NCBI GenBank assembly: GCA_963727625.1
Contig: CAVSHR010000014.1
Span: forward strand, 32,889-96,888
Direction of reading: 5' to 3'
Length of the DNA: 64,000 nucleotides
Origin: an uncultured delta proteobacterium
GTDB lineage: Bacteria > Desulfobacterota > Binatia > UBA9968
Part shown: one piece after another, positions 33,831 to 62,742 of the stretch
How the letters are laid out: every line of letters starts with the position of its first letter
How positions within the stretch are numbered: position 1 is the stretch's first letter
Notes under the pieces: generated by a model
What the model was told of the DNA's origin: nothing
Seen by the model: only the letters and a program-made list of their open reading frames with translations
The model's database searches: none
Made by a program: the position numbers and the translations under genes

Positions 33831-33952
33831 TCAGGAAGTTTAAACATGGCGGTCCGCCCTGAGATTAGTGGAAATCCTTCCGCTAAGTCTGGCTATACTC
33901 GCGAATCAGTAAAGCCGAAGGGAAGGATAGATGTTTGGTTAGGAGTAAATTT

Positions 33953-40106: not shown

Positions 40107-40505
40107 ATGAAGTCACTCAATCATACAGTCCCGATCATCGCCCTGGCAGTGACAGTGGCCGCGACTGCACTCGCAGGCTGCAGCGGCAACACGGCGCTGA
40201 TCGGGCGAGAGACCCTGCCCGCCAGGGCCAGTCAACCGGCGCAGAACGAAATGGTCGGGACAGTGGAGCGAATCGATACGGGTACGAGCGAGATACACCT
40301 TCGAGCCAGTGCCGGTCATCCGGGAATGGTTACGTATAGCGCGGAGACCCGGGTGATGTATCTTGGGCGGGTCTATCCGGTCAGCCAATTGCGATTTGGC
40401 GATGTCGTGGCCATGCAAATGGAAAAGGACTCTCGCGGCAATCCCCATACGCACCTGATCGACCTGCAAAAGAGCACTGGAGATTGGGCTCAGCGCCAAA
40501 ATTAG
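40107..40505 (+). CDS. Lipoprotein with one beta-rich domain (paralog of the N-half of 33953)
   Basis: LAGC lipobox; GTVERID..EIHLR..TRVMYLGR.YPVSQL..GD. Confidence 0.8.
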   Translation: MKSLNHTVPIIALAVTVAATALAGCSGNTALIGRETLPARASQPAQNEMVGTVERIDTGTSEIHLRASAGHPGMVTYSAETRVMYLGRVYPVSQLRFGDVVAMQMEKDSRGNPHTHLIDLQKSTGDWAQRQN

Positions 40506-43101: not shown

Positions 43102-43102
43102 C

Positions 43103-43891
43103 ATGAACAGTGAAAGTACAAACGGAATCGAACCGGAAGCGCAAATTACCGTGCGCAATCTGACCCTGGCCTACGGCTCCTTCGTCTTGATGCGCGATCT
43201 CAACTTTACGGTCAAGCGGGGCGATGTGTTTATCATCATGGGCGGCAGTGGCTGCGGCAAGAGCACGTTGCTGCGCAACATGATCGGTTTGATCGAACCG
43301 ACCGCGGGAGAGGTCTTTTACGAAAAGGCGAACTTTACCCACTCGGATGCGGAGGAGCGGCGCGGTTTTTTTCGCCGCTTCGGTGTCCTGTATCAGAGCG
43401 GTGGTCTGTGGAGCTCCATGACTCTCGCCGAAAACGTCGCGCTGCCGCTGGAAGAATACACCGATCTGAGCCCGGTCGAGATCCGCGAGATCGCTTCTTT
43501 GAAGCTCGCTTTGGTCGGCCTTAACGGCTTTGAAGACTATTACCCGTCGCAGATCAGCGGCGGCATGCAGAAGCGTTTGGGTTTGGCGCGCGCCATCGCG
43601 CTCGACCCCGAGGTGCTTTTCTTCGATGAACCCTCGGCAGGGCTCGATCCCATCAGTTCGCGCCGGCTCGACGACCTGATCTTGGCATTGCGCGATAGCT
43701 TGGGCGCGACGGTGGTTGCGGTAACGCACGAGTTGCCGAGTATTTTTGCCATCGGTAATAACAGTATTTTTCTTGATGCCGAAAGCAAAACCGCGATTGC
43801 GAGCGGTGACCCGAAAGAGCTGCTCGCACATTGTCAGAACCCCAAGGTGCAGGAATTTCTCACCCGCGGTGAAAGGCGGCCTAGTGAGTAA
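43103..43891 (+). CDS. MlaF-family ABC ATP-binding protein
   Basis: GGSGCGKST, ISGGMQKR, FDEPSAGLDP, VTH. Confidence 0.95.
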   Translation: MNSESTNGIEPEAQITVRNLTLAYGSFVLMRDLNFTVKRGDVFIIMGGSGCGKSTLLRNMIGLIEPTAGEVFYEKANFTHSDAEERRGFFRRFGVLYQSGGLWSSMTLAENVALPLEEYTDLSPVEIREIASLKLALVGLNGFEDYYPSQISGGMQKRLGLARAIALDPEVLFFDEPSAGLDPISSRRLDDLILALRDSLGATVVAVTHELPSIFAIGNNSIFLDAESKTAIASGDPKELLAHCQNPKVQEFLTRGERRPSE

Positions 43892-44888
43892 AAAGGCTAA
43901 TCCGACGCTCATCGGAGTCTTCGTGGTCGGCGCCATCGTTTTAGTGATTGGCGCGGTTACTATCATTGGCTCGGGGCGGCTGTTCCGAAAAACCTACGAG
44001 TTTGTGCTCTACTTCGAAGGTTCGGTAAGCGGCCTGAGAGAAGGCGCTCCGGTAAAGTACAAGGGCGTCGAAATCGGCTCCATTACCAAGATCCTACTGC
44101 AACTCGATGAGGGTGCAGATGTCAACCGAATTCCGGTAATTATCAAACTCGATGCCAATAAGATCAGCGGCAGAGGAGTCGGCGGCAGTCTGGCAGACCC
44201 GGCCGGGCTCAAAGCAGCAATTGATCGGGGTCTGCGCGGCCAATTGCAGACGGAAAGTATCGTTACCGGCGTGCTGTTCGTCGCGCTGGATCTCGTTCCC
44301 AATAGCCCGGTAAAGTTGTTTCAACCGCCGGGCTCGCGGTACCAGGAAATTCCTACCATCCCGACGACGCTGCAAAAAGCCCAGGATATCCTCGGACAGC
44401 TTCTCACCAAGCTCGATGACATTGATTTCAAAGCGCTGCTCAACTCCCTTGCTGAAGCCGTCAAGAATATAGAGGGATTGGCGAACAATAAGGACCTGCA
44501 GGGAGCCTTTGCCGGGGTCAATCGTTTAGTCAATAAGCCGGAGTTGCACGAGGCGATTCGCTCTCTCGATCAAACGGTGCTGAAAATTGCTCAAGCGGCG
44601 GACGGTGTTCAAAAAGTCTCCGGCAGTCTGGATCGCAATGTGGCGACGCTCTCGGCGGATTTACAAGTGACGCTGACCGGCGTGCGTGATGCGGTCAAGC
44701 AGATCCAAGTCACTGTGGCGAACCTGGACGGCTTCGTCGACCCTAACTCGCCAACCTCTTATGAATTGACAAAGGTTTTGAAAGAGCTTTCCGGGGCGGC
44801 ACGTTCGCTCAGATTGATGGCCGATTCTCTGGACCGGAATCCCAGGGCACTCTTGTTCGGTAGGCCGGAAAGCGAGAGCAAACCATGA
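43884..44888 (+). CDS. MlaD/MCE-family substrate-binding protein
   Basis: GTG start VSKKANPTLIG.FV; SVSGL..GAPVKYKGV.IG; L.RNP.ALLFG. Confidence 0.92.
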   Translation: MSKKANPTLIGVFVVGAIVLVIGAVTIIGSGRLFRKTYEFVLYFEGSVSGLREGAPVKYKGVEIGSITKILLQLDEGADVNRIPVIIKLDANKISGRGVGGSLADPAGLKAAIDRGLRGQLQTESIVTGVLFVALDLVPNSPVKLFQPPGSRYQEIPTIPTTLQKAQDILGQLLTKLDDIDFKALLNSLAEAVKNIEGLANNKDLQGAFAGVNRLVNKPELHEAIRSLDQTVLKIAQAADGVQKVSGSLDRNVATLSADLQVTLTGVRDAVKQIQVTVANLDGFVDPNSPTSYELTKVLKELSGAARSLRLMADSLDRNPRALLFGRPESESKP

Positions 44889-45517
44889 GCGATTGGATGA
44901 AAAATATTCTGGCGATCATCGCCATGTCGGTTTTGTTCGGCGGTTGTGCCGCCTTTGCAGCCAGAGCCGATCCGTCAAGTTTCTATATCCTTGGCACTCT
45001 CCCCGAGGTAGACTTGGCGGCAGACAAGACCACAGCCGGGATCAAAGCCGATTTTTCCGTCGGCCTTGGCCCCATTGAATTACCCGCTTACCTCGACCGC
45101 CAACAGATTGTCACACGCACCTCGACGAATCGATTGAGCTATTCCGAGAATGACCGCTGGGCAGCGCCGTTGGCCGAAAGTTTCAGTCGCGTTTTGGAAC
45201 AAAATATTTCCCATCTGCTCAATCCTGTGCGAATGAGCCGGTTTCCCTGGCAGAGTAACAGCGCACCGGATTACCAGGTGAAAATCGAAGTGCTCCAATT
45301 CGAGGGCAATAGCAATCAGGAGGCTCGGCTAACGGCGCATTGGACCGTGAGCGACCGCCACCAAAAAATTTTAGTCAGCCAAAGCTCACAGCTGAAGCGC
45401 CGCGCCGGATCCCTATCCACCGAAGATTCTGTCAAGGCATTGAGTGAAACGGTCGGCGATCTGAGTCGTGAGATCGCAAACGCATTGCGGTCTTTCGAGG
45501 AGCAGAGAAAACTTTAA
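44885..45517 (+). CDS. PqiC-family ABC auxiliary lipoprotein
   Basis: FGGC lipobox; LPAYLDRQQIV, RWAAPL. Confidence 0.9.
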   Translation: MSDWMKNILAIIAMSVLFGGCAAFAARADPSSFYILGTLPEVDLAADKTTAGIKADFSVGLGPIELPAYLDRQQIVTRTSTNRLSYSENDRWAAPLAESFSRVLEQNISHLLNPVRMSRFPWQSNSAPDYQVKIEVLQFEGNSNQEARLTAHWTVSDRHQKILVSQSSQLKRRAGSLSTEDSVKALSETVGDLSREIANALRSFEEQRKL

Positions 45518-47591: not shown

Positions 47592-47635
47592 CGGCTGCGC
47601 TGGCTTATGGACTGCGCGATATTTGTTTTAAAATC

Positions 47636-47677
47636 GTTCAATATTGGACAGCATTCCCGCCTGAAATAGAGCACTAT
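47636..47677 (+). promoter_or_regulatory. Crp-type box plus -10 CACTAT
   Basis: GTTCAATATTGGAC-N22-CACTAT. Confidence 0.78.
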
Positions 47678-47771
47678 TCGATCCAAACTCATCGAAATCG
47701 GAAATACGAATGGAACGATCGATACTCAAGCGCAGAGTTTGCTTGAGCTGTGGGAAAGGAGGTGAATTAGA

Positions 47772-48071
47772 ATGGAAAACAAACTCGTTATTTGGTCGAG
47801 TGTAGCCCTTTTTGTTGGAACTCTCGCTCTTGCGGCCTGCCAGCAGAATCCGGCTCCGCCAGCGGCACCACCGCCGCCACCGGCTGAAGCCGGGCCAGCG
47901 GGACCAGCAGGGCCAGCAGGACAAGAAGGAGTGGCCGGAGCGACTGGTGCGACCGGAGCGGAAGGAGAAAAAGCCAAGCCAGGGCAAGACGGAGCGACCG
48001 GAGCGACCGGAGCAACCGGAGCAACCGGAGCGGAGGGCGCGACTGGAGCTGAGGGACAAAGAGGCAGGTAA
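47772..48071 (+). CDS. Collagen-like (Gly-X-Y) lipoprotein, copy 1
   Basis: AAGGAGG RBS, LAAC lipobox, poly-Pro linker, GPA/GAT/GAE triplets. Confidence 0.88.
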
Positions 48072-48105
48072 GATTTTAATTGCGATATCTGGGTTAGGCG
48101 TCCAG

Positions 48106-48139
48106 AAAGGGGAAGGGAATGCAACCTTCCCCTTTTTTT
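48106..48139 (+). terminator. Rho-independent terminator
   Basis: AAAGGGGAAGG-gaatgcaa-CCTTCCCC-T7. Confidence 0.85.
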
Positions 48140-49689
48140 GTGACATGTCGGACCGATCCAAAACCGCAAATTCAGGAACTCACTAGTCCTGAAATAAGCG
48201 CCAAGCGTCTAAAAGTATGCATGGTCGGTTCATAGGGAGATCCTTGACGGTTCGTAAGCCCATCATGAGCATGCGTTTATATCACAAATCGGAGCCAGTC
48301 GGATGTTGTTGGACGATGAACCGAGGTCGAGAGTGATTTTGAGCGCAGCGCGGCGTGCGTCGGCCCGCGGGAGCAGCCGGATGAGGTCGCGTCGCAACCG
48401 TCTGTTAGGTCTGCAATCGAGCATGAGCGGCGAGGATGTCGGGCAAATACCGATGCGATCCGGCCAGCCGCACCACCAAGCTTCTGCCGAGCTTGAGAAC
48501 CTTGGCCGCAATGTAGACAAAGTGGCGGCGAAAGCGCTTCCACTCCCAGCGCACTACCTCCTCGGGCAAGACCAGTTGGGCGATCCACTTGCCCAGATTC
48601 CACGCCAGCCGAGCTATTTCCAGCCACGCCGAGTTGCCCATAAACTCCGCCACCGGCATGCGCCACCCCGCAATGCCGTGACCGAATTGCTCGATGAGGT
48701 TTTCCTGGTCGCAGCGCTGATAGGTCAGATCGACGACCCGCTGAGCCGTGTAAGAACGCGGCAGATCGCTCAGCACCAACCGGTAGCGGAAATGGCGAAA
48801 GAGCACTCCCTGACCATCGCACTCTTCAATCAAAATCCGCCGCACGATCAGGCGACACGGAAAGGGCACCCCGGCGGGCTGATAGTCGATCTCGCTGATC
48901 CACTGCTGAAGCGTGCTCAACGTGCGGTACCCTCGCTGTTGGGCTTTGGTTTTGCGGTAGTTGGGGGTGCGCCCCTCACGACTAGACCCGGCTGGCTTGT
49001 TGCGCTCGGCGCGCGGACAAAATCGCTGCCAACGCTTCTCCGCAATCGCCTCGGCCAGCGCGGCGCGATTGGGATGCAGCTTGGCCCCAATGGCAAAGTA
49101 CGCCCCCTGCTCGATCACCGCCTGGTACACGTCGGCCCGATCAAAGTCGGTATCGCCCCGCACAATGGCGCTTTTGAAATGGCGCTTCACCCGTGGCAAA
49201 ACTTCCTTGAGAGCCTCGGCGGCGCCGTCCGCAGCATGCCCGCTGCCTGGCTGATTGACCACCTTGAGGCACTCCCCACTGCCACCCAGCGTCACCACCA
49301 ACGGCTGATACGACCAACGCCCGTCGTAGCTAAAATCCGCCCCTCTTTCTGCACCCCGTACAGGGGCTTGATGTGACCATCGAGATCCACCAGCGCCATC
49401 TCGTGCTTCTTCCTGTGACGACGTACCGGGGCGGGCAACTTCGACCACACCGCCTCTTGCACCTCGTCGCCCACCCCACTCAACTGCTCCAAATCTTGTG
49501 CGCTCTTAAACCGACGCAGAAAATCTCCCGCCGTCGTCGGGTCCGGAATCCGACACGCTCCCACCAGTCTTCGAATCGCCTCGCTCCCTTGCAGCACCGC
49601 CTGGTCCTCCAGACATGTCCCATCGGCATAAAGCGTGTACATCAGCGCCAGCACATGGTCCGACTCAAAGTAGGGGGCATGACGCCTAA

Positions 49690-51174
49690 CAGCCCGTGGT
49701 AGAAGTCCGATTTTTACAAAACGCATGGGATCGCGGCGAAGCGGTGACTTGGGAGCGCAAATAGTCTCAGGTCGAGTCCTCGGCGCCGATGAGCGGTTAG
49801 TTGGTCGCGCAGTAGCACCCACAGAGTAAAACAGATAGCCAGTACGGCGGCAAAACGGCCCTGTAGACCGCGTGGCGTTCCAATTCCCGTCAACGTGCGC
49901 ATCCACAGGCCCAGATTGCAGGCCGCTACGTGCACGAGTAGCCGTTTGAGAATATTGCCGTGCCCGCGCAGATGAGTCCGGCGCATGCCGCCGGTCTCGT
50001 AGAGATGCGCATTGGGTCGCTCTAACAACTCACCTCGTTGCCGCATCAATAGCTGCCCACGCTCGCCTCGAATGCGCCGCCGATTGGCATACACCGCGTC
50101 ACGCTCAGCCTGCTGACCCTTCCAGTGCTGCCGGCCGCGATCCGGTTCACTGATGTAGGTGCGCAGTCCTAGGTTCTGCATATCGAGCACGGTTTGCTTA
50201 CTGTGATAGCCCTTGTCGGTGACCACTTCCTTGCCTATCTTCACCTTGTCGTCGATGATCGCAGCCACCGCTTCTAATTGCTCGATTGCCTCAGGCAGCG
50301 TCGTCTGGATCGTGGTCGTGTCGCCTTGATCGGCTTCCTGCAGCGTGACCGCCACGATGGCACCGGTCTCCAGGTCCACGGCATGCTCGGCTTTGTGCGC
50401 TAAATGGGTCCGTCCGTCCTTCATCTTGGCGATCCGTGCGTCGGGGTCATGCGGATGTTCCCAGTCCTGGTTAGATCCTTTCTTCTTACGTTTGCGATCC
50501 AACTTCGCCAGATCGGCTCGCGTTGGGGTCTCAATGCCGGATTCCTCAGCCAGCTTGGTCAAAAACTCGTTATAGCTCTCCCCGGTGTCGCGGCGCACGA
50601 TGCTGCGCAAGGCCGCGTTCGCTTCGAGCGTGGTAGCATCGATCGCCAGCGTTTTCCCTTTGATGAGTCCGGCGATGCCCAGACACTGAAGTACCCATGT
50701 GAACACCGTCCGATGGGTTTCCAAATCGATCAATCGCCGAGTCCGCGATATCGTCGAATGATCCGGTGCACACTCGGTCAGCCCCAGCTCAAGGAACGAT
50801 CGCACTCCCGAGGAGTCCGCCGCGCGCCACGCCATGGCGCGTTCAGAGTCCAGGCATTCGAAGTAGCCAAGTAATAGAAAACGGAAATATCGTCCAGGCG
50901 CCAGACTGGGCCGCCCCATCTTCTCGGCATAGAACGCCCGGCACTGCGCTTCGACAAACTCGTCGAACCCATGCTTGGCCAATAACCCGTTGAGCTTCTC
51001 GTAGAACGGGTGGCTCACAGACTTCGGCAGCTCGCTCACTCCCACCCACATCGCTCTCTGCTCTTCGTGTTTTCGTTGTCCCATCGCCATGCAAAAAATT
51101 CTACACGATCTATCGTTCCTGTCGACTACTCTCCATCACTCTCCCACTTCATTCTCGACTTTCACCACGGGCTG
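49690..51174 (-). mobile_element. IS1182/IS5-like insertion sequence (1485 bp)
   Basis: 18-bp IRs CAGCCCGTGGTAGAAGTC and GACTTTCACCACGGGCTG; 4-bp target duplication CTAA (49686-49689 and 51175-51178). Confidence 0.92.
49714..51090 (-). CDS. DDE transposase with DUF772-like N-terminal domain
   Basis: GRPSL.P, SER, PDHSTISRTR, IDATT, DKGYHS, ERPNAH. Confidence 0.92.
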   Translation of the reverse strand: MAMGQRKHEEQRAMWVGVSELPKSVSHPFYEKLNGLLAKHGFDEFVEAQCRAFYAEKMGRPSLAPGRYFRFLLLGYFECLDSERAMAWRAADSSGVRSFLELGLTECAPDHSTISRTRRLIDLETHRTVFTWVLQCLGIAGLIKGKTLAIDATTLEANAALRSIVRRDTGESYNEFLTKLAEESGIETPTRADLAKLDRKRKKKGSNQDWEHPHDPDARIAKMKDGRTHLAHKAEHAVDLETGAIVAVTLQEADQGDTTTIQTTLPEAIEQLEAVAAIIDDKVKIGKEVVTDKGYHSKQTVLDMQNLGLRTYISEPDRGRQHWKGQQAERDAVYANRRRIRGERGQLLMRQRGELLERPNAHLYETGGMRRTHLRGHGNILKRLLVHVAACNLGLWMRTLTGIGTPRGLQGRFAAVLAICFTLWVLLRDQLTAHRRRGLDLRLFALPSHRFAAIPCVL

Positions 51175-51550
51175 CTAAACAACACCAGGGCCTGGTCCAA
51201 CCGCTGCGCAACCCGAAACCGCCGGACAAACTGCTGCGCCAAGACCAAACCTCCATAATGCGTAATGTTACCTCGTGGATCGCTCTCAAGATGGAGCAGC
51301 GGATGGCGCATCACCCGCCCTTGAGTCTCGGGCCACGGAAGTTCGGCAGGATCGATGCTCGTACCGGAATTGACGTGACTTGCACGTCCAAATGCGATAG
51401 ATATTTTCACTTGGGAGCCCTCTGCTTTTTGGGGTTACGTTGCTGTGTGGCAACTCTTCGTATACCTCATTTCAGAGGGCTTTTCCCGTTTTTAAATCCA
51501 CCTCAACAAATTTTCCTGTCCACAGCGCTTATTTGAGGACTAGTCTAGTC

Positions 51551-52746: not shown

Positions 52747-52843
52747 CGAGTTCGAACGCCTGGATTGATGGAGTGGTGGAGTGATGGGTCCGGACTTGGA
52801 CTTTCTATCGTCCGGAAAATTCTGCTGGTCCATGGAGGTTGCA

Positions 52844-53179
52844 ATGAAAATATTATTCTTGGTCTTGGCAATTTTTGCCGGTCTCGGTCAATGGGGATGT
52901 AGCGGTTCCTTTTCCTGGGGAGACGGCGCCACCAGTCGGTCGGGAGCCAGACTCCAGACCGTCGATGGCAGGGTGGAGCGGGTGGATGTCCAGCGCAGCA
53001 CCTTCGAAGTGCGCGATCAGTTTGGCAAGCGGGTCATCGTTTCTCTCCGCGCCGACGCACGGAGTTCGGACGTCGATCGTTTACGGGGCCTTCGGGAGGG
53101 CGATTACGTCAGAGTCGAGGGGCGATTCCTCGATCGGGAGCGTTTTGAGTTGGAGAATTTTCTTCGGGACAACCGTTAG
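52844..53179 (+). CDS. Lipoprotein with one beta-rich domain (paralog of the C-half of 33953)
   Basis: QWGC lipobox; LQTVDGRVERVD...GDYVRVEGRFLDRERFELENFLRDNR. Confidence 0.82.
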   Translation: MKILFLVLAIFAGLGQWGCSGSFSWGDGATSRSGARLQTVDGRVERVDVQRSTFEVRDQFGKRVIVSLRADARSSDVDRLRGLREGDYVRVEGRFLDRERFELENFLRDNR

Positions 53180-53369
53180 CCGGATTACCATGGGCGTTGC
53201 TTGAGCGGATGACCGAAAGGCGATGGGATTCCTTCGAAGGGGCGACTTTTGAGTTCTCAGTTGTCCTATCGTAAAAGCGAGTTCCTATCGTTTAGCCCAC
53301 GCTCATAAAGTGGACGGCCTAGGCACCTCGCGGGCCGACAATCCGCTTAACTCTCGATGCGAAGGCGAT

Positions 53370-54068
53370 ATGTTGCATTTTACCGCTAGATGCCATCGGA
53401 TAAAGGGAAATAAACGATTCTTACTCTCGGCAAGTACGATCGCTATCCTGTCAGCTAGGGTCTTCGCGTCAGAACCGCCGGCATGGATGAATATTCCTGC
53501 CGATGCGGCGAAAGAAATCGCGTCGGAGAATATCTCGGAAGAGATCTACAGCAAGCTCGTCAAACGTACGATCGTCGTCCAGGAACGCGTCACCCCGCCC
53601 GACAAGACGGGTGTCCACGTCGCAGGTTTCGGCATCGTCAACGCGAATGTCGATACGACGTGGGAGGGGATGACCGAATGCGAGAATCTCCCGAAGTTCA
53701 TGCCGAGCATGGTTGACTGCCACCCCATCAAAGCGGAAAGGCCTCTCGGCTCGAACGAACGATGGACATACAACGAACTCAAGTTCTCCTTCGGTCCAAT
53801 CTCTCAGACGATCAAGATCATCGAAGAGTGCAAGCAGTATCCTAAAAAAAAGTATACATGGGAGCGCGTAAGCGGAGACACGAAGCTCAATATCGGTTCG
53901 TGGAGGATGATCACTCTCAACCCCGATCATCAGCTTCTGGTCTACGATACAATCACCGACGTGGCAGGCGTTCCCGACTGGATTGCTCGCTTGCTCACGG
54001 GCGGGAATCTTCCGACGACAGTCAGGGCGATGCGGAAGTGGATCGAGGAAACCCTTTCGCAAAAATAG
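53370..54068 (+). CDS. SRPBCC/START-domain (lipid-binding/cyclase fold) protein, probably exported
   Basis: VNANVDTTW..MTECENLPKFMP.M..C, W..VSGD.K.N.GSW, VPDWI...L....LP....AMR. Confidence 0.75.
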   Translation: MLHFTARCHRIKGNKRFLLSASTIAILSARVFASEPPAWMNIPADAAKEIASENISEEIYSKLVKRTIVVQERVTPPDKTGVHVAGFGIVNANVDTTWEGMTECENLPKFMPSMVDCHPIKAERPLGSNERWTYNELKFSFGPISQTIKIIEECKQYPKKKYTWERVSGDTKLNIGSWRMITLNPDHQLLVYDTITDVAGVPDWIARLLTGGNLPTTVRAMRKWIEETLSQK

Positions 54069-54215
54069 CGCGAATACTGTCGAAAACCATAAACGCCGAT
54101 AAAAAACATTTTGTTAAAGTGCTCAATTCAAAGGGTTCTTTGGATACATCAAAATGAAAGTAGGCCAGACAAGCCGAAGAGTGATGCGGGCTGACCGTTA
54201 TGGAAGGGAGTCAAG

Positions 54216-55655
54216 ATGGACAAAGTTGCCAAAGTTACGCCGCCGATGGACTGCAACCACCCCAACGGCCGTAAGAATGGATATGGAAGCGGAAGCCAAA
54301 CACACTCCAAACGAACGGCCGACATCTTCGCCAAGTGCCACGAGCTGACTGAGCCAGATAATGTCAAGGCTCAAGGGTTGTATCCTTATTTTCGCACGAT
54401 CGAAGCAACCCTTGGGAATCAAGTCGTATGCGGTGGGCGTCCGAAGATCATGATCGGGTCCAATAACTATTTGGGACTTGCACAGGATGAACGGGTGATC
54501 GACGCAGCCCAACTGGCGGCACGAAAATATGGATCGGGTTGCACGGGTTCCCGCATCCTCAATGGCAACATTCGTCTTCATGAGCAGTTGGAAGAGGAAC
54601 TTGCGGTCTTCTTGCAGCGCGAAGCGGTGCTGCTTTTTTCCACTGGTTTTTTTGCGAACATTGGAACACTTCAAACATTGCTGGCTGAAGGGGATTTTAT
54701 TCTATGCGATCGCGAAAATCACGCCAGCATCATAGACGGATGCCGGATGTCAAAAGCGAAGACCGTCCCATTCGCCCATAATTCCGCTGAGGCACTCAGG
54801 CATCGTTTGAAACATCTCCCGCCTGATTCCGGAAAACTCGTGATTGTGGATGGCGTGTTTAGCATGTCGGGAGACATCGCCGACCTTCCCGAGCTTGCCA
54901 AAGTCGCACGGGAATATGGATCTCGTTTGTACGTAGATGAAGCTCACGCATTGGGAGTATTGGGGAAAAAAGGGGAGGGGACGGCTCATCATTTTGGGAT
55001 GAACAACGAGATTGATCTTGTCATGGGGACATTTTCCAAGTCCCTGGGTTCAATGGGAGGTTTTGTCGCTGGGCCGAAATATGTCATCGAGTATCTCAAA
55101 CATAAGGCGCGTTGTTTTCTTTTTACCGCTTCGCTTGCGCCCGCAGTTACGGGAGGAGTATTGAAGGCCTTGCAGATCCTCCGAGAGGAGCCTGAGCGAA
55201 TTGATCAGCTTTGGAAAAATGCCCGGAAAATGCACGAGGGATTCCGTACTATTGGTTTAAATGTTGGGACTTCGACGCCTATCATCCCCATCCTTATCGG
55301 AAGCGAAGCCAAGGCTTTCCTTTTCAGTCAAAAACTTTATGACGCCGGCATATTTACCACTCCGGCAATTTATCCCGCTGTTCGGTATGGACAGGCGATT
55401 GTGCGTACAAGTTACATGTCGACCCATACCGACGAGGAGCTTAACTATGTGCTTGAAACCTGCGAGCGAGTGGCGGAAGAACTCGGAATTTTTGATGACG
55501 CGGCATATACCGGGGAAACGAAGAGAGGAGTTGTAAGTGGATACGATTTTGGCGTGCCCGGACAGGAGGAGTCTCAAGCGATTCGAGGAACTTCCGGAGA
55601 AAATCCACAAGAACAACCCTCACTTCGTGCCACCGTTTCCGGGAAGCGTCTCTAG
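54216..55655 (+). CDS. spt: Alpha-oxoamine synthase, most likely serine palmitoyltransferase
   Basis: LYPYFR, GSNNYLGL, GCTGSR.LNG, NHASI, VDEAH, PLP lysine in GTFSKS; operon context. Confidence 0.8.
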   Translation: MDKVAKVTPPMDCNHPNGRKNGYGSGSQTHSKRTADIFAKCHELTEPDNVKAQGLYPYFRTIEATLGNQVVCGGRPKIMIGSNNYLGLAQDERVIDAAQLAARKYGSGCTGSRILNGNIRLHEQLEEELAVFLQREAVLLFSTGFFANIGTLQTLLAEGDFILCDRENHASIIDGCRMSKAKTVPFAHNSAEALRHRLKHLPPDSGKLVIVDGVFSMSGDIADLPELAKVAREYGSRLYVDEAHALGVLGKKGEGTAHHFGMNNEIDLVMGTFSKSLGSMGGFVAGPKYVIEYLKHKARCFLFTASLAPAVTGGVLKALQILREEPERIDQLWKNARKMHEGFRTIGLNVGTSTPIIPILIGSEAKAFLFSQKLYDAGIFTTPAIYPAVRYGQAIVRTSYMSTHTDEELNYVLETCERVAEELGIFDDAAYTGETKRGVVSGYDFGVPGQEESQAIRGTSGENPQEQPSLRATVSGKRL

Positions 55656-56658
55656 ATTTTTTGGGGCGAAGTCCTCCTTTAGGAAACATGGCGACCTATT
55701 TCCGTTTATTGCGTACCGGAATGCGCAGGCGGTGGGGAGAATTGCTGCCATTCATAATCGAGCGCACAACGACTACTACAAAGATAAGATCGGATTCTTC
55801 GGCTTTTTTGATTTCATTGACGATATAGAGGTAGCCAGGAAACTCTTTCAGGCTGCTTGCCAGAAAATGAGCCAACTCGGGATGACGAGTATTCGGGGGC
55901 CGTTTAACCCTAGCATTAATGAAGAATGCGGAGTCTTGATCGAGGGTTATGACTCGAGCCCCTTTATCATGATGCCTTACAATCCTCCTTACTATGCCAA
56001 AATCTACGAAGCGCTGGGATTGGGCAAGGCGCGTGACCTGCATGCATACTATCTTCCCTCGGCGGTAGAGGCGCCAGAGCGAATTACAAAGATGGTGGAG
56101 CGAGTCCGTCGTCAAAGCGGATTAAAATTGCGGACTGTGGACCTAAAACACCTGGACAAAGAATTACCGATTCTCCATCGTCTTTACAACGTCACTCTCG
56201 ATCGGAATTGGGGCTTTGTTCCGATCACTTTAGAAGATCTCGAAGCAACCGCTAAGGAGTTAAAAGCCATCGTCGATCCAGAACTGGTGTTGATAGCTGA
56301 GCGGAATGGAGAGGCTGCGGGTTTTTCGCTCGCCCTTCCGAATGTCAATGAACTGATGTGGCGTGTGAAGGGTTCCCGTTCCGCTCTCATGAGAGTTTTG
56401 CGGTTTCTTTGGTTTCTTAAGATGAAACCGCCAAAAGAAGGAAGATTGATGGCATTGGGGGTAGCGCCCGAATATCGGCAACAGGGCATTGCGGCGCTTT
56501 TTTATTATGAAACCCTGATGCGGGGTAAACGGTCGTATATTGGCGGGGAGCTTTCTTGGGTGGACGAGACGAACAAAGAGATCATCAAAGCAATGACGGT
56601 CATGGGTGCGCGCCGTTATAAGAATTATCGTGTTTACGAAAGAGTGCTCTCCCCATGA
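55537..56658 (+). CDS. GNAT-fold acyltransferase, bacterial ceramide synthase (bCerS)-like
   Basis: GRIAA, GFFGFF, RGPFNPSINEECG.L.EG, MPYNPPYY, NWGF.P, ELSWV.E.N; GAGGAG RBS before GTG. Confidence 0.8.
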   Translation: MDTILACPDRRSLKRFEELPEKIHKNNPHFVPPFPGSVSRFFGAKSSFRKHGDLFPFIAYRNAQAVGRIAAIHNRAHNDYYKDKIGFFGFFDFIDDIEVARKLFQAACQKMSQLGMTSIRGPFNPSINEECGVLIEGYDSSPFIMMPYNPPYYAKIYEALGLGKARDLHAYYLPSAVEAPERITKMVERVRRQSGLKLRTVDLKHLDKELPILHRLYNVTLDRNWGFVPITLEDLEATAKELKAIVDPELVLIAERNGEAAGFSLALPNVNELMWRVKGSRSALMRVLRFLWFLKMKPPKEGRLMALGVAPEYRQQGIAALFYYETLMRGKRSYIGGELSWVDETNKEIIKAMTVMGARRYKNYRVYERVLSP

Positions 56659-57698
56659 AATTACTTCTCACCGGCAGCACCGGATTCGTGGGTCGTAGCT
56701 TCCTAATCTCCGCGATTCGGAGCGGGCGCTACGACCAAATCTTTTTGCCGGTTCGAAGCAAGAAAAAACTGAATGCTCAACTCTTGGGAGATGGGTTTGA
56801 GGCAGTACCCAAAGGCGTAACACCCTTGGAGGGCTCTGCTGACGACTGGAATATACAGACGATTGGAAAGGTGGATCACGTAGTTCATACCGCGGGAGCT
56901 CTGTTTGCCAATTGTCGTCAGGAATACTTCGAGACGAACGTTGAGGGGACGGTGCGGATTCTGGAATCCACTCGGGGGGCAAGTCGATATGTGATTCTTT
57001 CTTCCCAGGCGGCGGGGGGACCGTGTGAGAAGGGAATGCACGCTCGCACCGAGTCCGACGGGGATAGACCCCTGACCTGGTACGGACAGTCAAAGCTCGA
57101 GATGGAACGACGAATCGTCCGCGAGTTTTCCGATCTCAACTATTTGATTCTTCGTCCTCCCATGATTTTAGGCCCCCGCGACAGTTCAACGCTGCCGCTG
57201 TTTAAGATGGTTCAAGGACCGTTGCATTTTAAGCCGGGGATTCGTGAGAAGTATTACAGCTATCTATCGGTCAACGATGTGGTTTCAGCCATCTCCAAAG
57301 TGCTCGAACATCGTGCCGACTACAAGAGCCTTGCTCGTCGCTGTTTCTATGCGGCTTCAAGATATCCAATTTCTGATAAGGAGCTTCTTTCCGGCACCGC
57401 CAAAGCGAGCCAAAGTTGGGGCGTGATTGTTCCCGTTCCGGAGCTACTATTGCGGCTCATGTCCCACGTCGTGGATCGTGTGCCCTGCTTTCGGATGACC
57501 ATTCCGTCGCTTTGCCGGGAGCGAGTTCACGAAATCTTGCCCGATCGCTGGGTGGTTTCGTCGGAGGAGTTTTGCCGTTCGTTCGGTTGGGAGCCTCAAG
57601 AGCCTCTTCCCGGGGTTCTGAAGGCGACTTACGACTGGTATTGTCGCAGCGGACAGCTTAGGCCCTTTCGTTGGTTAGGATTGAAGGCGCGGCATTAG
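56655..57698 (+). CDS. NAD(P)-dependent epimerase/dehydratase SDR, ceramide reductase (CerR)-like
   Basis: TGSTGFVG, SSQAAGGP, YGQSK, LRPP..GPRD; ATGA coupling. Confidence 0.78.
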   Translation: MKLLLTGSTGFVGRSFLISAIRSGRYDQIFLPVRSKKKLNAQLLGDGFEAVPKGVTPLEGSADDWNIQTIGKVDHVVHTAGALFANCRQEYFETNVEGTVRILESTRGASRYVILSSQAAGGPCEKGMHARTESDGDRPLTWYGQSKLEMERRIVREFSDLNYLILRPPMILGPRDSSTLPLFKMVQGPLHFKPGIREKYYSYLSVNDVVSAISKVLEHRADYKSLARRCFYAASRYPISDKELLSGTAKASQSWGVIVPVPELLLRLMSHVVDRVPCFRMTIPSLCRERVHEILPDRWVVSSEEFCRSFGWEPQEPLPGVLKATYDWYCRSGQLRPFRWLGLKARH

Positions 57699-57766: not shown

Positions 57767-57928
57767 TTACCCGATTAGCTCCCGCATACGAGCGAGCTCC
57801 CCTGAAGATAAGAGCTGAAGATTGTTTCCTTCCACGCTCGCTTCCCCGGCGTCCGCACGGTCGAGTCCGCCACTGATATTGAGCAACGTGGTTTTCCCGG
57901 AATCTGAAAGGCCTGCAACCATAGCAGT
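57767..57928 (-). pseudogene. Remnant of LolD/MacB-type ABC ATPase
   Basis: AGLSDSGKTTLLNISGGLDRADAGEASVEG..L..LS..ELARMR, then stop. Confidence 0.7.
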
Positions 57929-58301
57929 TTTGATTCAAAGCGGATGGACGTTTGGCCGCACGGGGAAGAGTGCCACCTCGCGCCACCTCACAAGCCGCGG
58001 ATGGTAAAGAAAAGGGATAGTGATGGCGGTTCGGCTTTCATGGGTTTTGCATTCTTGCAAAACAGCTCTCGTTTAATTGTCAAAAATAACATTCCTAAAA
58101 AGCAAAGCGTAGCAAAGCTGAATAGTTGCCATCATGAAGTAGTTTGCACACAACTTGCGATTAGTCAGTAAACGAGAAACAAACCAAGAAGGTTGCAACG
58201 ACCATAAAATTGAACGGGGAGATTTACCAGTAAGAACGGCGAGAGCCTACGGGCGGCTAGGAAGCCCGAGAGGGCAGGTTTTTTAGGGAAAGGAGTTGCA
58301 C

Positions 58302-58448
58302 ATGCTTTGGACGATTTTTGTGATTCTTTTGATTCTGTGGGCGCTTGGATTGGTCACTTCGTACACGATGGGTGGATTCATTCATATTCTCTTGGTCATT
58401 GCCGTGGTGATGCTAGTGATCAATCTCGTTCAGGGGCGAAGAGTCTAA
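58302..58448 (+). CDS. lmo0937/DUF5670 family membrane protein (copy 2, 48 aa)
   Basis: MLWTIFVILLILWALGLVTSYTMGGFIHILLVIAVV...QGRRV. Confidence 0.9.
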   Translation: MLWTIFVILLILWALGLVTSYTMGGFIHILLVIAVVMLVINLVQGRRV

Positions 58449-58481
58449 CAGCCATTTCGGTTTTAAAAAGGACGGAATTTT

Positions 58482-58706
58482 ATGCGCAATCCATTAACGC
58501 TTGTTGGGATCGCTCTGGTCGTGCTGGGAATCGTGGCCTTTGCATACCAGGGCATCACCTATACAAGCCGCGAGAAGGTTATCGACATTGGCCCCTTCCA
58601 AGCTACTGCCGAGACCCAGAAGACCATCCCACTTTCACCACTATTGGGCGGGTTGGCGCTTGTGGGTGGGATTGTGTTGGTGGTGGTCGGAGCCAAGAAG
58701 GCGTAG
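58482..58706 (+). CDS. DUF3185-like membrane protein (near-identical to 18712)
   Basis: YQGITYTSREKVIDIGPF.ATAETQKTIPLSPLLGG. Confidence 0.88.
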   Translation: MRNPLTLVGIALVVLGIVAFAYQGITYTSREKVIDIGPFQATAETQKTIPLSPLLGGLALVGGIVLVVVGAKKA

Positions 58707-58756
58707 TTCGACTTGGGGCATTGCCCACTAAGTTGTGAGCACAAGGATAGATACTG

Positions 58757-58867
58757 ATGATTCCACCGGTTCTTCAATCTGACCCATTCAAGGAACAATT
58801 GCGCGAGTCATTGCAGCGCGAGACGTTAAATTCTCGTACCGTCAAGATCGCCAAACATGCCAACGTC
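58757..58867 (+). pseudogene. N-terminal fragment of a fourth Crp/Fnr gene (rest deleted)
   Basis: MIPPVLQSDPFKEQLRESLQRETLNSRTVKIAKHANV joined directly to the DUF3309 leader. Confidence 0.85.
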
Positions 58868-58896
58868 ATGTCAAATCAATCGGGAGGTAACTTATT

Positions 58897-59046
58897 GTGG
58901 GACTGATATTGCTGATTGTCTTGATTCTGCTGCTGTTTGGCGGTCTGCCCAACTGGGGTTATCACTCCTATGGTTACGGTCCCTCGGGCATCGTCGGGGT
59001 GATACTGGTTATCGTCCTGATTCTGTTCCTGATGGGGCGGATCTAG
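58897..59046 (+). CDS. DUF3309 family membrane protein (copy 3)
   Basis: GTG start, GGAGG RBS; GGLPNWGYHSYGYGPSG...MGRI. Confidence 0.88.
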   Translation: MGLILLIVLILLLFGGLPNWGYHSYGYGPSGIVGVILVIVLILFLMGRI

Positions 59047-59131
59047 GAGGCTCAGGGCCTTTGGGGTGCTTGTTTGCGACAGCTACATTCACGCTGCCGC
59101 AAAAATCGTTGGCAAAGGGCCGGTGCATGCC

Positions 59132-59185
59132 GTGATCAAACAAATAGAGATCCACGGACGGCGGTTAGAGCGATTTAAGGCATAG
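59132..59185 (+). pseudogene. 5' relic of a KQIEIHG-family gene
   Basis: MIKQIEIHGRRLERFKA*; a similar relic sits near 20015-20050. Confidence 0.6.
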
Positions 59186-59199
59186 AGTTTCATTCCTGA

Positions 59200-59225
59200 G
59201 CTTACTTGAAATTCTTCAAGTAAGC
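59200..59225. repeat. 26-bp perfect inverted repeat, copy 3
   Basis: GCTTACTTGAA-ATTC-TTCAAGTAAGC. Confidence 0.7.
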
Positions 59226-59266
59226 CTGACTTAACGTTTAACCGGTCCAACCAATGGAGATTGGAG

Positions 59267-60146
59267 ATGAGAAAATTAATATTGGCGTTAATGGTGATTG
59301 TGGCTCTGGGTCAATGGGGGTGTAACAGCGCACTCTGGGAAGACTTGGTCACAGGTCAACCTGACCAACGCGATCTCGTGGCAGAGGTGGAGCGGGTAGA
59401 TACTTCGCCTCAGGAGATCCATTTACGAGAGAATAGTGGTCGCACCAGTATGGTAGGTTATGATGCCAGCACCCGGGTAATTTATCGTGGGCGTGAATAT
59501 TCAGTCAACCAACTAGAGGCCGGGGATATCGTGACCGTGGAACTGAAACGGGGCCTTCTGGGGAAATCTTATGCGAATTTGATCCGCGTCCAAGAAAAAA
59601 TTCGGGATCGGGGCGGTATTACTACCAGGCCAGGAGCCGGAATCCAGACGGTCGATGGGACGGTGGAGCGGGTAGATACTTCGCCTTGGGAGATCCGTAT
59701 ACGAGAGAGCAGTGGTCGCACCAGAGTGGTCACTTATTATTCCGACACCCGGGTGGTTTATCGCGGGCGTGAATATCCGGTCACCCAATTAGAGGCCGGG
59801 GATATCGTAACCGTGGAAGTGAAAGAGGACTCTCGTGGCAACTCCTATACGAATTTGATCCGCGTCCAAGAAAGTGTCCGGGATCGGGGCGGTATTACCA
59901 CCAGGCCAGGAACCGGGATCCAGACGGTCGATGGGAGAGTAGAGCAGGTGGACTTCCAGCGCGGCTCCTTCGAAATGCGCGGCCAGTCGGGAGAAGAGGA
60001 TATTCGTTTCTCTCCCGTACAACGCGAGGAGATCGGATGTCGATCGTTTCCAGGGGCTTCGGGTTGGCGATTACGTCAGGGTCGAGGGGCGATTCATCGA
60101 TCGGGAACGCTTCGAGTTGGAGACTTTTCTCCGGGACAATCGGTAG
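59267..60146 (+). pseudogene. Three-domain lipoprotein (33953 family) with 276-bp internal tandem duplication and a frameshift near 59995
   Basis: Repeat units 59386-59661 and 59662-59937. The conserved tail ...EGRFIDRERFELETFLRDNR* is in another frame, ending 60146. Confidence 0.8.
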
Positions 60147-60184
60147 CTGCTTTACCCGTGGCATTGAGCTGATCATTGAGAAGG

Positions 60185-60240
60185 CAGGCGGGGTCGTCTT
60201 GGTCATTGTCGGAGCCAAGAAATCGTAGTTCGACTTGGGG
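60185..60240 (+). pseudogene. 3' relic of a DUF3185-like gene
   Basis: GGVVLVIVGAKKS* followed by TTCGACTTGGGG, as after 58706. Confidence 0.6.
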
Positions 60241-60499
60241 TTCAAGGTCGTGCCCGCAATGAGCCTTGGATGAACCTGCGATGAGTTGTACACGAGGTGA
60301 TCGACGTGGAAAATTTACTTTGGACACTAGCGATCGCAATCGTCGCGGCTTGGATGGCAGTGCAGGTTCTGAGGGGACGAATCTGAGCGCTGAATGCTCG
60401 TTTAAATAAACAGCCTGACGGCTTACCCGCACTTTGATTCACCAAGAGACAGCTACGGGCAACACGTCAGGCGTGATTGCCCCAAAGGAGGTGCCTTAA

Positions 60500-61399
60500 G
60501 TGTATTTCAGTCGTTTTCTTCTCGTCGCCATAGGTTTGACTCTACTCCCGTTTTTTTCTGCCGGGGCGCAGGTTGACCGTAAGCCGGTAGGGGAGACTCG
60601 AACGCTTGAGCTGGTCGATCAGCTCAAAGATGTGATTCAAAAAGCGGAGAAGACTCGCACCGACCCCTCGTTGATGCAGCAACTGCGCGACCTCGTGCGT
60701 CGCTACGATTGGCCCTGGAGAGTTGCACTTTTATACGACGATTTTCATGACGGTGATTACACGGCAAATCCGTCTTGGGTTGTTGACAAAGGTGACTTCC
60801 GGGTGAGCCAATTTGGGCTTGGTACCGTTTTTACCCAGCCGGCGAGCCCAACTCCCGTCTCATCGGAAAAGAGAGGCGAAAAGTCCACGCTAGAGCGTTT
60901 AGGTGGGTTGTTGGGAGAGATGACGCGACGGGAAGAAGCTGCTGCGCCCCCGCCACCCCTGCCATCTGCGGCCGAGATCTACACGGCGCTCCGTATCACC
61001 AACTCCTTCGCCGTGAAGCTTCAGATGACTTCCAGGGGGAGATCCGCGGACGGTGCCCGCCTTGAGTTTGGTCCCTATCAGGGAAGTGAGCGTAACCAAG
61101 GCTATCGGCTGGTCTATACTTCCGGGAACAAGCCAGCTTTTGCGTTGTTACGAGTCGCGGCGGGACGCTCATCGGTTATCGAGGTTTATGACCAATCAGT
61201 GAATTTGGAAGACGGGCGCCCTCATGGCCTCGAATGGCGCCGTGGCACAGACGGCGAGATGGTAGTGCTGCTGGATGACAAAGAGATCATCCGGGCCTCT
61301 GACCGCGCATCCGGGGAACCCTTCGATGGGTTCACCGTTATCAATGGCGGCGGGGACTACGCTTTTACCCAGATCGCGCTCTTTGGCACGCCCCGATAG
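60500..61399 (+). CDS. Secreted hypothetical protein (DDF.DGDYT.NP.W motif, beta-sandwich-like)
   Basis: AAGGAGG RBS, signal peptide ending AGA, coherent 299-aa ORF. Confidence 0.8.
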   Translation: MYFSRFLLVAIGLTLLPFFSAGAQVDRKPVGETRTLELVDQLKDVIQKAEKTRTDPSLMQQLRDLVRRYDWPWRVALLYDDFHDGDYTANPSWVVDKGDFRVSQFGLGTVFTQPASPTPVSSEKRGEKSTLERLGGLLGEMTRREEAAAPPPPLPSAAEIYTALRITNSFAVKLQMTSRGRSADGARLEFGPYQGSERNQGYRLVYTSGNKPAFALLRVAAGRSSVIEVYDQSVNLEDGRPHGLEWRRGTDGEMVVLLDDKEIIRASDRASGEPFDGFTVINGGGDYAFTQIALFGTPR

Positions 61400-61453
61400 A
61401 CCAGGTTATAAATGTCGTTTCCGTATCGGAGCGTCCGAAGGTAGGTAGAATAC

Positions 61454-61693
61454 ATGATCAAACAAATCGAGATCCACAGTCAGCGCTTCGAGCTTTACAG
61501 TCCAGACGAAGGGCGCACCTGGTCGAGCAGCCCGCGCTCGATCGTTGCTTATGGGCGAAGGAAAAAGAAGTTGCGCTCGGAGCTACAGAAGAGGTTTGAG
61601 CGAATAGACCCGAGGCAGAATCGCGAGCCGACTAATTTAAGTCGACTTAAAACTCCAAAGAGGCTCAGAGAGGTACAGGAGATGAAAACATGA
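61454..61693 (+). CDS. Hypothetical protein of the KQIEIH...GRTWSSSP family
   Basis: Paralog of 32076; ATGA-coupled to the BON gene. Confidence 0.78.
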   Translation: MIKQIEIHSQRFELYSPDEGRTWSSSPRSIVAYGRRKKKLRSELQKRFERIDPRQNREPTNLSRLKTPKRLREVQEMKT

Positions 61694-62742
61694 CCGGAAC
61701 ATATTGGGTAAAGCGCAGTGTGCTCGCTGTGGTCGTGGCTGTTGCATTGGCCGCGCCGGCCGGGGCGGCCACACCGGACGCTTGGATCACCACCAAGATC
61801 AAGCTGAGTCTGCTAACCACGGAGGGCGTCAGCGGGACGGCCATCCACGTGGACACGATACTCGGCAAGGTCACCCTGCACGGCAAGGTGCCCTCAGCCG
61901 ACGAAAAGGCGAAAGCAGAGAGCCTAGCCAAGAACATCGACGGCGTGCTGGAAGTGCGCAATCTGCTCCAGGTCGTTACCCCGGAGCGCAAGAAGGCTGT
62001 TCAGGTGTCCGATGACGCACTGAAGCAGCGGGTTGAGAAGGCATTGCAGGCCGATGCTTCACTTAAGAAGAGCAGCATCTCGGTAAAGTCCGTCAACAGG
62101 GGCGTAGTGCTGCTGTCCGGCACGGCGAAGACCTTGAGCGCTCACCTGCGCGCCGTCGAGACTGCGGCCTGGGTGCCAGGCGTGGCGCGGATCGCCAGCG
62201 AGATCAAGAGCCCCGATGCGCTGGCCGATGCGGAGATCTGGCATGACCCTACGCCGAAACGGTCCAGTCGGGGGGAATCCAACATTTGGGATGCTGCCAG
62301 CGATATATGGATTACCTCGGTAACCAAGATGACCTTGCTGACCGACAGCCGGACGCCGGCGCTCGACATCAATGTGGAGACGCGGGCGGGGGTCGTTACG
62401 CTCTTTGGGATTGTCCCCTCGCAGCAGGCGAAGGACGCTGCCGGGGCCGATACCCGCAGGGTGAGCGGCGTCAAGCGCGTCATCAACGACTTGCAGGTGA
62501 TGACAAGAGCGAAAGAGGCGACGGTGAAGGTGCGCGACGAGGATATCGAGCGCGATGTGAAGAAGGCCTTGGAGAAGGCTGACTTCAAGGACATCCGTGT
62601 CGAGGTGAAGAACGGCGTCGTGCGGCTAATGGGGACGGTCCCCACCGGGGCGCGGCGCCTCGATGCAGCGGTGCTGGCGCGCTCGATCCAGGGTGTGCGC
62701 GCGGTCAAGGACGATCTGCGCATCGAAACCGCCAAGCGCTAA
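61690..62742 (+). CDS. OsmY-like periplasmic protein with four BON domains
   Basis: Signal peptide; DAWITTKIK, DDALK..V, DIWITSVTK, DEDI...V, each followed by G.V.L.G. Confidence 0.92.
   Translation: MTGTYWVKRSVLAVVVAVALAAPAGAATPDAWITTKIKLSLLTTEGVSGTAIHVDTILGKVTLHGKVPSADEKAKAESLAKNIDGVLEVRNLLQVVTPERKKAVQVSDDALKQRVEKALQADASLKKSSISVKSVNRGVVLLSGTAKTLSAHLRAVETAAWVPGVARIASEIKSPDALADAEIWHDPTPKRSSRGESNIWDAASDIWITSVTKMTLLTDSRTPALDINVETRAGVVTLFGIVPSQQAKDAAGADTRRVSGVKRVINDLQVMTRAKEATVKVRDEDIERDVKKALEKADFKDIRVEVKNGVVRLMGTVPTGARRLDAAVLARSIQGVRAVKDDLRIETAKR

Follow-up and report, generated by a model that had tools for sequence, protein, structure and literature searches.

A three-gene operon predicted to build a ceramide-type lipid backbone in an uncultured Binatia bacterium, adjacent to a gene encoding an exported SRPBCC protein

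The 64,000 nt stretch analysed here, referred to as the window (contig CAVSHR010000014.1, positions 32,889 to 96,888; all coordinates below are relative to the window), comes from an uncultured delta proteobacterium and contains at 54216-57698 a translationally coupled three-gene operon that is predicted from sequence comparison to produce a ceramide-type lipid backbone, with a probability of about 0.72. The operon encodes an alpha-oxoamine synthase (AOS) resembling serine palmitoyltransferase (Spt), a GNAT N-acyltransferase of the bCerS type and a CerR-like SDR, and it is preceded by a gene for an exported SRPBCC protein. This adds one uncultured lineage to the bacteria predicted to make sphingolipids, in a compact three-gene version lacking a dedicated acyl carrier protein (ACP) that should be easy to express for testing of its product and substrate. 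The finding is mostly ordinary, since the trio is already known and the SRPBCC protein has no conserved tie to it in other genomes. A bacterial START-type ceramide carrier would have mattered most, and gene co-occurrence gives no support for one.

An earlier note, made from the letters of this stretch alone, had described a co-oriented, overlapping run of an AOS carrying the motifs GTFSKS and LYPYFR, a GNAT and an SDR downstream of a START-domain protein. The four open reading frames (ORFs) are indeed found on the positive strand where that note had placed them, and the overlapping run is borne out for the AOS, GNAT and SDR genes. The AOS gene (54216-55655, 479 aa) encodes a pyridoxal phosphate (PLP) enzyme with LYPYFR at 54378-54395 and GTFSKS at 55026-55043. 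The GNAT gene (55537-56658, 373 aa) starts with GTG, has the Shine-Dalgarno sequence AGGAG 6 nt upstream and carries an RQQGIA motif at 56476-56493. Its overlap of 119 nt with the AOS gene is taken to be real because the first 30 residues of the GNAT protein are conserved among full-length homologues, with 7 of the 24 alignment rows lacking part or all of them; overlaps of approximately 77-104 nt were also found in the four close relatives in which the ORF ends were checked (loci L003, L004, L008, and L009). The SDR gene (56655-57698, 347 aa), encoding a member of the extended, NAD-dependent epimerase/dehydratase type, begins on the GNAT stop codon through an ATGA junction (4 nt overlap), with TGSTGFVG at 56670-56693 and YGQSK at 57081-57095. 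The SRPBCC gene (53370-54068) falls outside this arrangement, as 147 nt separate it from the AOS gene and tight coupling is limited to AOS-GNAT-SDR. This AT-rich spacer (54069-54215, positive strand), in which GGGAG precedes the AOS ATG, gave no hit in promoter and terminator scans, which window-wide performed at or below shuffle expectation, and its RNA has no significant fold (z = 0.84). No Rfam match was found anywhere in the window.

The genes spt, bcerS (cerS) and cerR were reportedly defined in Caulobacter crescentus by Stankeviciute et al. in 2022 (Nat Chem Biol). The AOS, GNAT and SDR of the window are each full-length homologues of their counterparts in the sphingolipid locus of Sphingomonas parapaucimobilis, which encodes an NAD(P)H-binding protein, an ACP, a class I/II aminotransferase, an ATP-binding protein, lptF, lptG, a desaturase, and an N-acetyltransferase. 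This layout mirrors the Caulobacter region as given in PMC11324152, cerR-acpR-spt ... lptF2-lptG2-cerS (CC_1164-CC_1162, CC_1156/55, and CC_1154). The window trio comprises the same three families as Caulobacter spt/bcerS/cerR (an AOS, a GNAT of approximately 370-380 aa and an extended SDR), likewise clustered, but differs in its AOS>GNAT>SDR order, its 119 nt overlap and the lack of acpR, aasR, and LptF2/G2/C2; annotation of the 64 kb window revealed no dedicated ACP (acpR), no acyl-ACP synthetase (aasR) or acyl-AMP ligase, and no LptF2/G2/C2 (LptF/G) paralogues.

Synteny across other genomes supports the assignment. When 185,579 species genomes were scanned with the GNAT alignment, 597 relatives came up and 80 loci were kept, with partner genes located by local tblastn. 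An AOS lies beside the GNAT in 59 of the 80 loci and an SDR in 43, both being present in 41, and these loci come from many phyla. The exact order and strand of the window are found in seven loci, the commonest arrangement (22/80) having the SDR divergent and upstream; the AOS>GNAT>SDR order also occurs on Rubrobacter and Streptomyces plasmids. Because this synteny matches the co-localisation of Spt-like genes with bCerS and CerR in 38-40 phyla that is reported in PMC11334938, the cassette is regarded as known in kind, and it is well supported by these comparisons that the window trio belongs to the already published Spt-bCerS-CerR cluster type. The proposal in the earlier note of a ceramide-type cassette is thus upheld by homology to the Sphingomonas locus, by a serine palmitoyltransferase (SPT) as best structural match of the AOS (below), and by synteny in multiple phyla. 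Lipid-related neighbours lend further support: PAP2_3/PAP2_C genes, which are candidate head-group transferases, occur in or beside 8 of the 41 complete clusters (L034, L035, L036, L038, L041, L051, L071, and L074), mostly in Acidobacteriota.

The AOS matches Pfam Aminotran_1_2 (E = 9e-58), and its top NCBIfam model is Spt (CFB) at 476.9 bits, ahead of TIGR01825 (398.8), BioF (380.4), and Kbl (373.9). Its best match in the PDB is the SPT of Sphingobacterium multivorum with 404 bits, followed by Kbl (253), cysteate acyltransferase (223), and BioF (209). The window protein aligns with this SPT (PDB 3a2b, 8guh) over residues 47-421 and is nearer to the Sphingobacterium type than to the alphaproteobacterial type; against S. 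parapaucimobilis Spt, BLASTP aligns it end to end with 37% identity (E = 1e-89). The blocks GTFSKS, NHASIIDG, and DEAHALG align with the equivalent blocks in solved SPT and in Sphingomonas Spt; the first is the motif of the PLP-binding lysine and the other two are the His/Asp blocks of the active site. For a maximum-likelihood tree, 62 sequences were used: 57 AOS from GNAT loci, the window AOS, Sphingomonas Spt, the AOS of the E. coli yghO locus, BioF, and Kbl. As the comparison with Spt, BioF and Kbl proposed in the earlier note, this tree places the window AOS with the GNAT-linked AOS and Sphingomonas Spt in a group of 60 rows, split from E. coli BioF and Kbl with support of 100/94. Within this group the window AOS clusters with Bdellovibrionota metagenome-assembled genomes, sharing 77% identity with the protein of locus L004.

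These results bear on the reading of the AOS as a housekeeping BioF or Kbl with the GNAT and SDR as unrelated neighbours. The BioF and Kbl models do score highly on the protein (380 and 374 bits), yet both scores are sub-threshold, and the placement of the E. coli enzymes outside the AOS clade, the translational coupling of the three genes, the recurrence of the trio in 41 of 80 loci across phyla and the absence of bio or tdh genes near the AOS in the Pfam and NCBIfam annotation of the window leave this reading scarcely credible. The window protein is most likely a Spt-like AOS with L-serine as its predicted amino acid substrate.

The GNAT matches PF00583 (E = 7.7e-6) and belongs to a very large family with more than 4432 homologues in the protein search, although its closest relatives are few: only four share at least 75% identity (75-87%) and the rest share 64% or less. 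Searches of NCBIfam and the PDB yielded no curated model and no solved relative for this protein, and its ESM Atlas matches carry cluster names that read only 'GNAT family'. BLASTP aligns residues 3-371 with the S. parapaucimobilis N-acetyltransferase at 28% identity (E = 2e-46), and a tblastn search of annotated plasmid records showed that E. coli YghO belongs to the same family (31.9% identity over 97% of the length, E = 3e-46). By sequence, the bCerS family is the YghO family; no published function for YghO came up in a literature search. YghO resembles the window GNAT along nearly its full length, but in E. coli it belongs to an ACP-dependent kind of locus: in record NZ_MG591698.1 (L083), yghO lies beside genes for a fatty acyl-AMP ligase, an SDR, an ACP, and an AOS, together with lptF/lptG paralogues. 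In a Pseudomonas veronii plasmid (L087) the AOS is annotated, and the unnamed ORFs next to it correspond in order and size. On the Diaphorobacter IncP plasmid pDCB2 (L089), the genes around the GNAT encode LptF/LptG permeases, CDP-alcohol phosphatidyltransferases and a fatty acyl-AMP ligase, with no AOS, ACP or SDR within the 7 kb flanks. All three loci resemble the sphingolipid locus of Caulobacter and Sphingomonas, which raises the possibility of sphingolipid-type gene sets in some enterobacteria and on a conjugative plasmid. The window GNAT itself is predicted to be a bCerS-type N-acyltransferase.

The SDR matches PF01370 (E = 2e-18), and its BLASTP alignment with the NAD(P)H-binding protein of Sphingomonas (25% identity, E = 3e-18) runs from end to end, with the YGxSK motif in register. 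We take TGSTGFVG to be the extended-SDR Rossmann motif and YGQSK the catalytic YxxxK. The nearest solved structures are generic epimerases only. The protein would have no N-terminal signal peptide, since its Rossmann motif starts at residue 6, and the same applies to the Sphingomonas homologue. CerR of Caulobacter is reported to be periplasmic (PMC11087976).

Several points weigh against the assignment of the operon to ceramide synthesis. The AOS falls under all of the Spt equivalog cut-offs (476.9 bits against 640, 385.5 against 500, and 315.3 against 670; NCBIfam NF047600, NF047599, and NF047603), and the tree has just two outgroups, E. coli BioF and Kbl, both of which are long-branched. The GNAT family is wider than ceramide synthases, an AOS being absent from the fetched flanks in 21 of the 80 loci, several of which have short flanks, and the GNAT copies on Roseomonas plasmids adjoin nucleotidyltransferase genes. 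In addition, the tie to the tested bCerS and CerR of Caulobacter is indirect, as it runs through the Sphingomonas locus, which was identified by synteny.

The shortfall against the Spt cut-offs would also fit an operon making a related lipid other than a serine-derived ceramide, such as a cysteate-derived sulfonolipid or capnine, an alanine- or glycine-derived 1-deoxy base, or another N-acyl amino-alcohol lipid. The window AOS differs from the S. multivorum enzyme and other solved SPTs in terminal extensions of about 45 aa (N-terminal) and about 55 aa (C-terminal), besides scoring below the CFB-type Spt cut-off, and its subclade of seven rows sits on a long internal branch (0.61). Cysteate acyltransferase is recognisable as a relative (223 bits), and PMC11334938 also attributes (1-deoxy)ceramides to this pathway. 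However, the SPT score is far higher than those of cysteate acyltransferase, Kbl and BioF, and the window AOS is nested in the clade that holds Sphingomonas Spt, making a non-serine product unlikely.

With ceramide-type synthesis as the preferred function, the Spt-like AOS would form a 3-keto long-chain base by condensing a long-chain acyl thioester with an amino acid, most likely L-serine. This base would then be N-acylated by the YghO/bCerS-type GNAT, and the CerR-type SDR would reduce the 3-keto group to yield dihydroceramide; the order of acylation before reduction is suggested by analogy with the Caulobacter model. The acyl donor would probably be acyl-CoA or a housekeeping ACP, given that the window contains no dedicated ACP or acyl-ACP synthetase. 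Similarly, export of the lipid would have to depend on genes elsewhere, as no LptF/G paralogue is encoded in the window.

The protein encoded upstream of the operon (53370-54068, positive strand) is 232 aa long counted from an ATG, and a longer ORF starts with GTG at 53310. Basic residues, a hydrophobic segment and a VFA|SE junction give its N-terminus the look of a signal peptide, so that its description in the earlier note as an exported SRPBCC/START protein stands as to export and SRPBCC fold; the START label does not, the Pfam family being Polyketide_cyc (PF03364, 24.8-25.1 bits against a cut-off of 23.4), with PF10604 below threshold and no match to the Pfam START family (PF01852). All 60 aligned relatives match PF03364 and 2 of the 60 match PF01852, and Cys104 and Cys117 are invariant in the family alignment. 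The family is small: HMMER against 1.84 billion representative proteins gave 12 members at E <= 1e-10, rising to 114 at E <= 1e-3, and a word-indexed search returned 15 matches, all with at least 57% identity, the closest at 93% and others at 65-71%.

An AlphaFold2 model based on an alignment of 60 sequences gives a confident helix-grip fold (pLDDT 89.9; 48.9 with 13 close homologues alone). The top Foldseek matches in the PDB are polyketide aromatase/cyclases, TTHA0849 and a Xanthomonas START-like protein, with the START domain of CERT appearing from rank 17 on at a query-normalised TM of about 0.5. The polyketide aromatase/cyclases (ZhuI, 3tfz; WhiE-ORFVI, 3tvr; TcmN, 2rer) and the START domains (CERT, 2e3r; MLN64, 1em2) share the helix-grip fold with a central pocket, and the window protein matches these structures at E = 1e-8 to 1e-6 with a target-normalised TM of up to 0.8; it differs from them in sequence (9-18% identity) and in having, besides the signal peptide, a helical extension of approximately 50 aa at its N-terminus. 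The modelled fold would indicate a hydrophobic-ligand pocket, and nothing more specific.

The earlier note had proposed that this protein could be a bacterial sphingolipid carrier, with a nearby Mla/PqiC system as the transport route, and had named the co-occurrence of START genes with spt as a check. In its fuller form, the proposal is of a periplasmic carrier that takes ceramide, or oxidised ceramide, toward the outer membrane and possibly hands it to the Mla-like system. Several features of the locus favour a carrier: the gene is co-oriented with the operon and separated from the AOS downstream by only 147 nt in which no terminator is predicted, the confident helix-grip model is of a lipid-pocket fold with the CERT START domain among its Foldseek matches, and the signal peptide and two invariant cysteines suggest the periplasm, where CerR is also reported in Caulobacter (PMC11087976). 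The passage of sphingolipids across the periplasm is only partly known, according to PMC11324152 and bioRxiv 10.64898/2026.04.12.717747.

Linkage in other genomes, whose absence the earlier note had itself given as grounds for refutation, does not bear the proposal out. No homologue of the SRPBCC protein was found in any of the 80 GNAT loci by tblastn, by the family hidden Markov model (HMM) or by a 60-sequence SRPBCC HMM at E <= 1, the last of which does detect the Rubrobacter SRPBCC protein described below (15.4 bits) as a check of sensitivity. A Pfam scan of the ORFs lying up to 3 kb from the 41 complete cassettes, 230 in all, likewise gave no SRPBCC family; the last batch of these ORFs was scanned at E <= 1e-6, a threshold at which a match as weak as that of the window protein itself would be missed. 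The only named homologue (63% identity) is on plasmid pIAE1 of Trichlorobacter lovleyi, where it lies in an unrelated context between rhodanese-like and VIT-family genes, and the 45 plasmid records in which a GNAT homologue was found do not include pIAE1. One locus of the six annotated cassette-type loci inspected (L082, L083, and L086-L089) does combine the two: on Rubrobacter radiotolerans plasmid 1 (L086, 4707-11632), AOS>GNAT>SDR is followed by LTA-synthase/sulfatase-family and small multidrug-export genes and, approximately 3 kb downstream of the cassette, by a gene for a 160 aa SRPBCC protein, the sole SRPBCC gene observed close to a cassette elsewhere. This lends the carrier some support, but the Rubrobacter protein is not detectably orthologous to that of the window (BLASTP E = 0.014 over 12 residues).

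Composition and fold also set the SRPBCC protein apart from the operon. Its gene has a GC content at third codon positions (GC3) of 0.67, host-like and similar to that of the upstream neighbours, unlike the three operon genes (0.51, 0.55, and 0.59), and its best fold matches are polyketide cyclases and not CERT. The Mla-like set is present, consisting of MlaE (41944-43101), MlaF (43091-43891), MlaD (43746-44888), and a PqiC-like lipoprotein (44885-45517), but it lies 8 kb upstream of the SRPBCC gene, with an RlpA-like gene, unannotated ORFs and a complete insertion sequence (IS) between them, and it is not linked to the cassette elsewhere: of the 80 GNAT loci, one carries a homologue of the window MlaE, and no homologue of the window MlaD or PqiC was found in any. 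The MlaE-like permease has an N-terminal extension with a weak STAS match (E = 7.5e-4, below the cut-off). A search of the available literature found no publication that joins SRPBCC with sphingolipid and bacterial serine palmitoyltransferase. The SRPBCC protein is probably a separate gene product whose gene neighbours the operon in this lineage and is not part of it, and a role as ceramide carrier toward the outer membrane appears quite improbable. It is a long shot, too, that this rare protein acts as a soluble shuttle carrying ceramide, or the 3-keto precursor of ceramide, through the periplasm in a lineage with an operon lacking LptF2/G2/C2-type transport genes; if it did, bacteria would have evolved, independently, a functional counterpart of eukaryotic CERT.

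The earlier note had also found that the cassette looks more AT-rich than its flanks, suggesting a recent insertion. The compositional difference is real and modest: the cassette span has a GC content of 51.2% compared with 55.0% for the window, which puts it among the bottom 3.4% when 597 windows of equal size are ranked and coincides with the GC minimum of the window, and GC3 is 0.51-0.59 in the operon against mostly 0.60-0.75. A recent insertion is weakly supported, with low GC and GC3 of the three-gene operon in its favour and the host-like SRPBCC gene against it, together with the lack of any tRNA in the window and of an integrase or clean flanking repeats at the cassette boundaries. The flanks of the cassette differ in every relative examined, and related loci are found on plasmids, including a conjugative IncP plasmid. 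Taken with the low GC and GC3 of the operon, these differing neighbours suggest a self-contained module that moves between genomes. Whereas the housekeeping PBP1A has 119 relatives with 69-81% identity among the matches listed, including one at 75% from a 'Deltaproteobacteria bacterium' metagenome-assembled genome, the GNAT has only the four at or above 75%. Horizontal acquisition of the three-gene module, without the SRPBCC gene, agrees with these observations and is plausible but unproven.

The nearest mobile element to the cassette is the complete IS at 49687-51177, located 2.2 kb upstream of the SRPBCC gene. It has 21 nt inverted repeats that are 86% complementary and encodes a 458 aa DDE transposase of the IS1182/IS5-like type (49714-51090, negative strand). 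On the other side, a 51 aa ORF on the negative strand (57767-57922) abuts the 3′ end of the operon and contains a Walker-A-like stretch with a weak match to PF00005 (E = 0.0023, 19 bits against a cut-off of 25, profile positions 17-51 of 137), making it a possible remnant of an ABC-transporter ATPase. A search for the other half of this remnant yielded chance-level matches only. The remnant may mark a rearrangement at the 3′ edge of the operon.

Direct repeats of 173 nt at 53027-53199 and 59994-60166 (80% identity) correspond to the 3′ ends of paralogous DUF5666-like lipoprotein genes. Four such lipoprotein-like genes with weak DUF5666 matches are present in the window (33935-34579, 40233-40484, 52781-53179, and 59261-60172), two of which bracket the SRPBCC gene and the operon, and a copy of 303 aa holds a tandem duplication of 276 nt.

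Downstream of the operon, the region 58296-62742 contains small membrane and envelope genes. These encode a DUF5670 protein (58296-58448), a 74 aa protein with two helices (58482-58706), a DUF3309 protein (58897-59046), a 299 aa exported protein with no family (60500-61399), and an OsmY-like protein with four BON domains (61690-62742). Upstream, a 9 nt periodic repeat array at 47890-48055 lies within ORFs on both strands (47628-48161, negative; 47812-48186, positive), suggesting a low-complexity repeat protein rich in Gly, Ala, and Pro.

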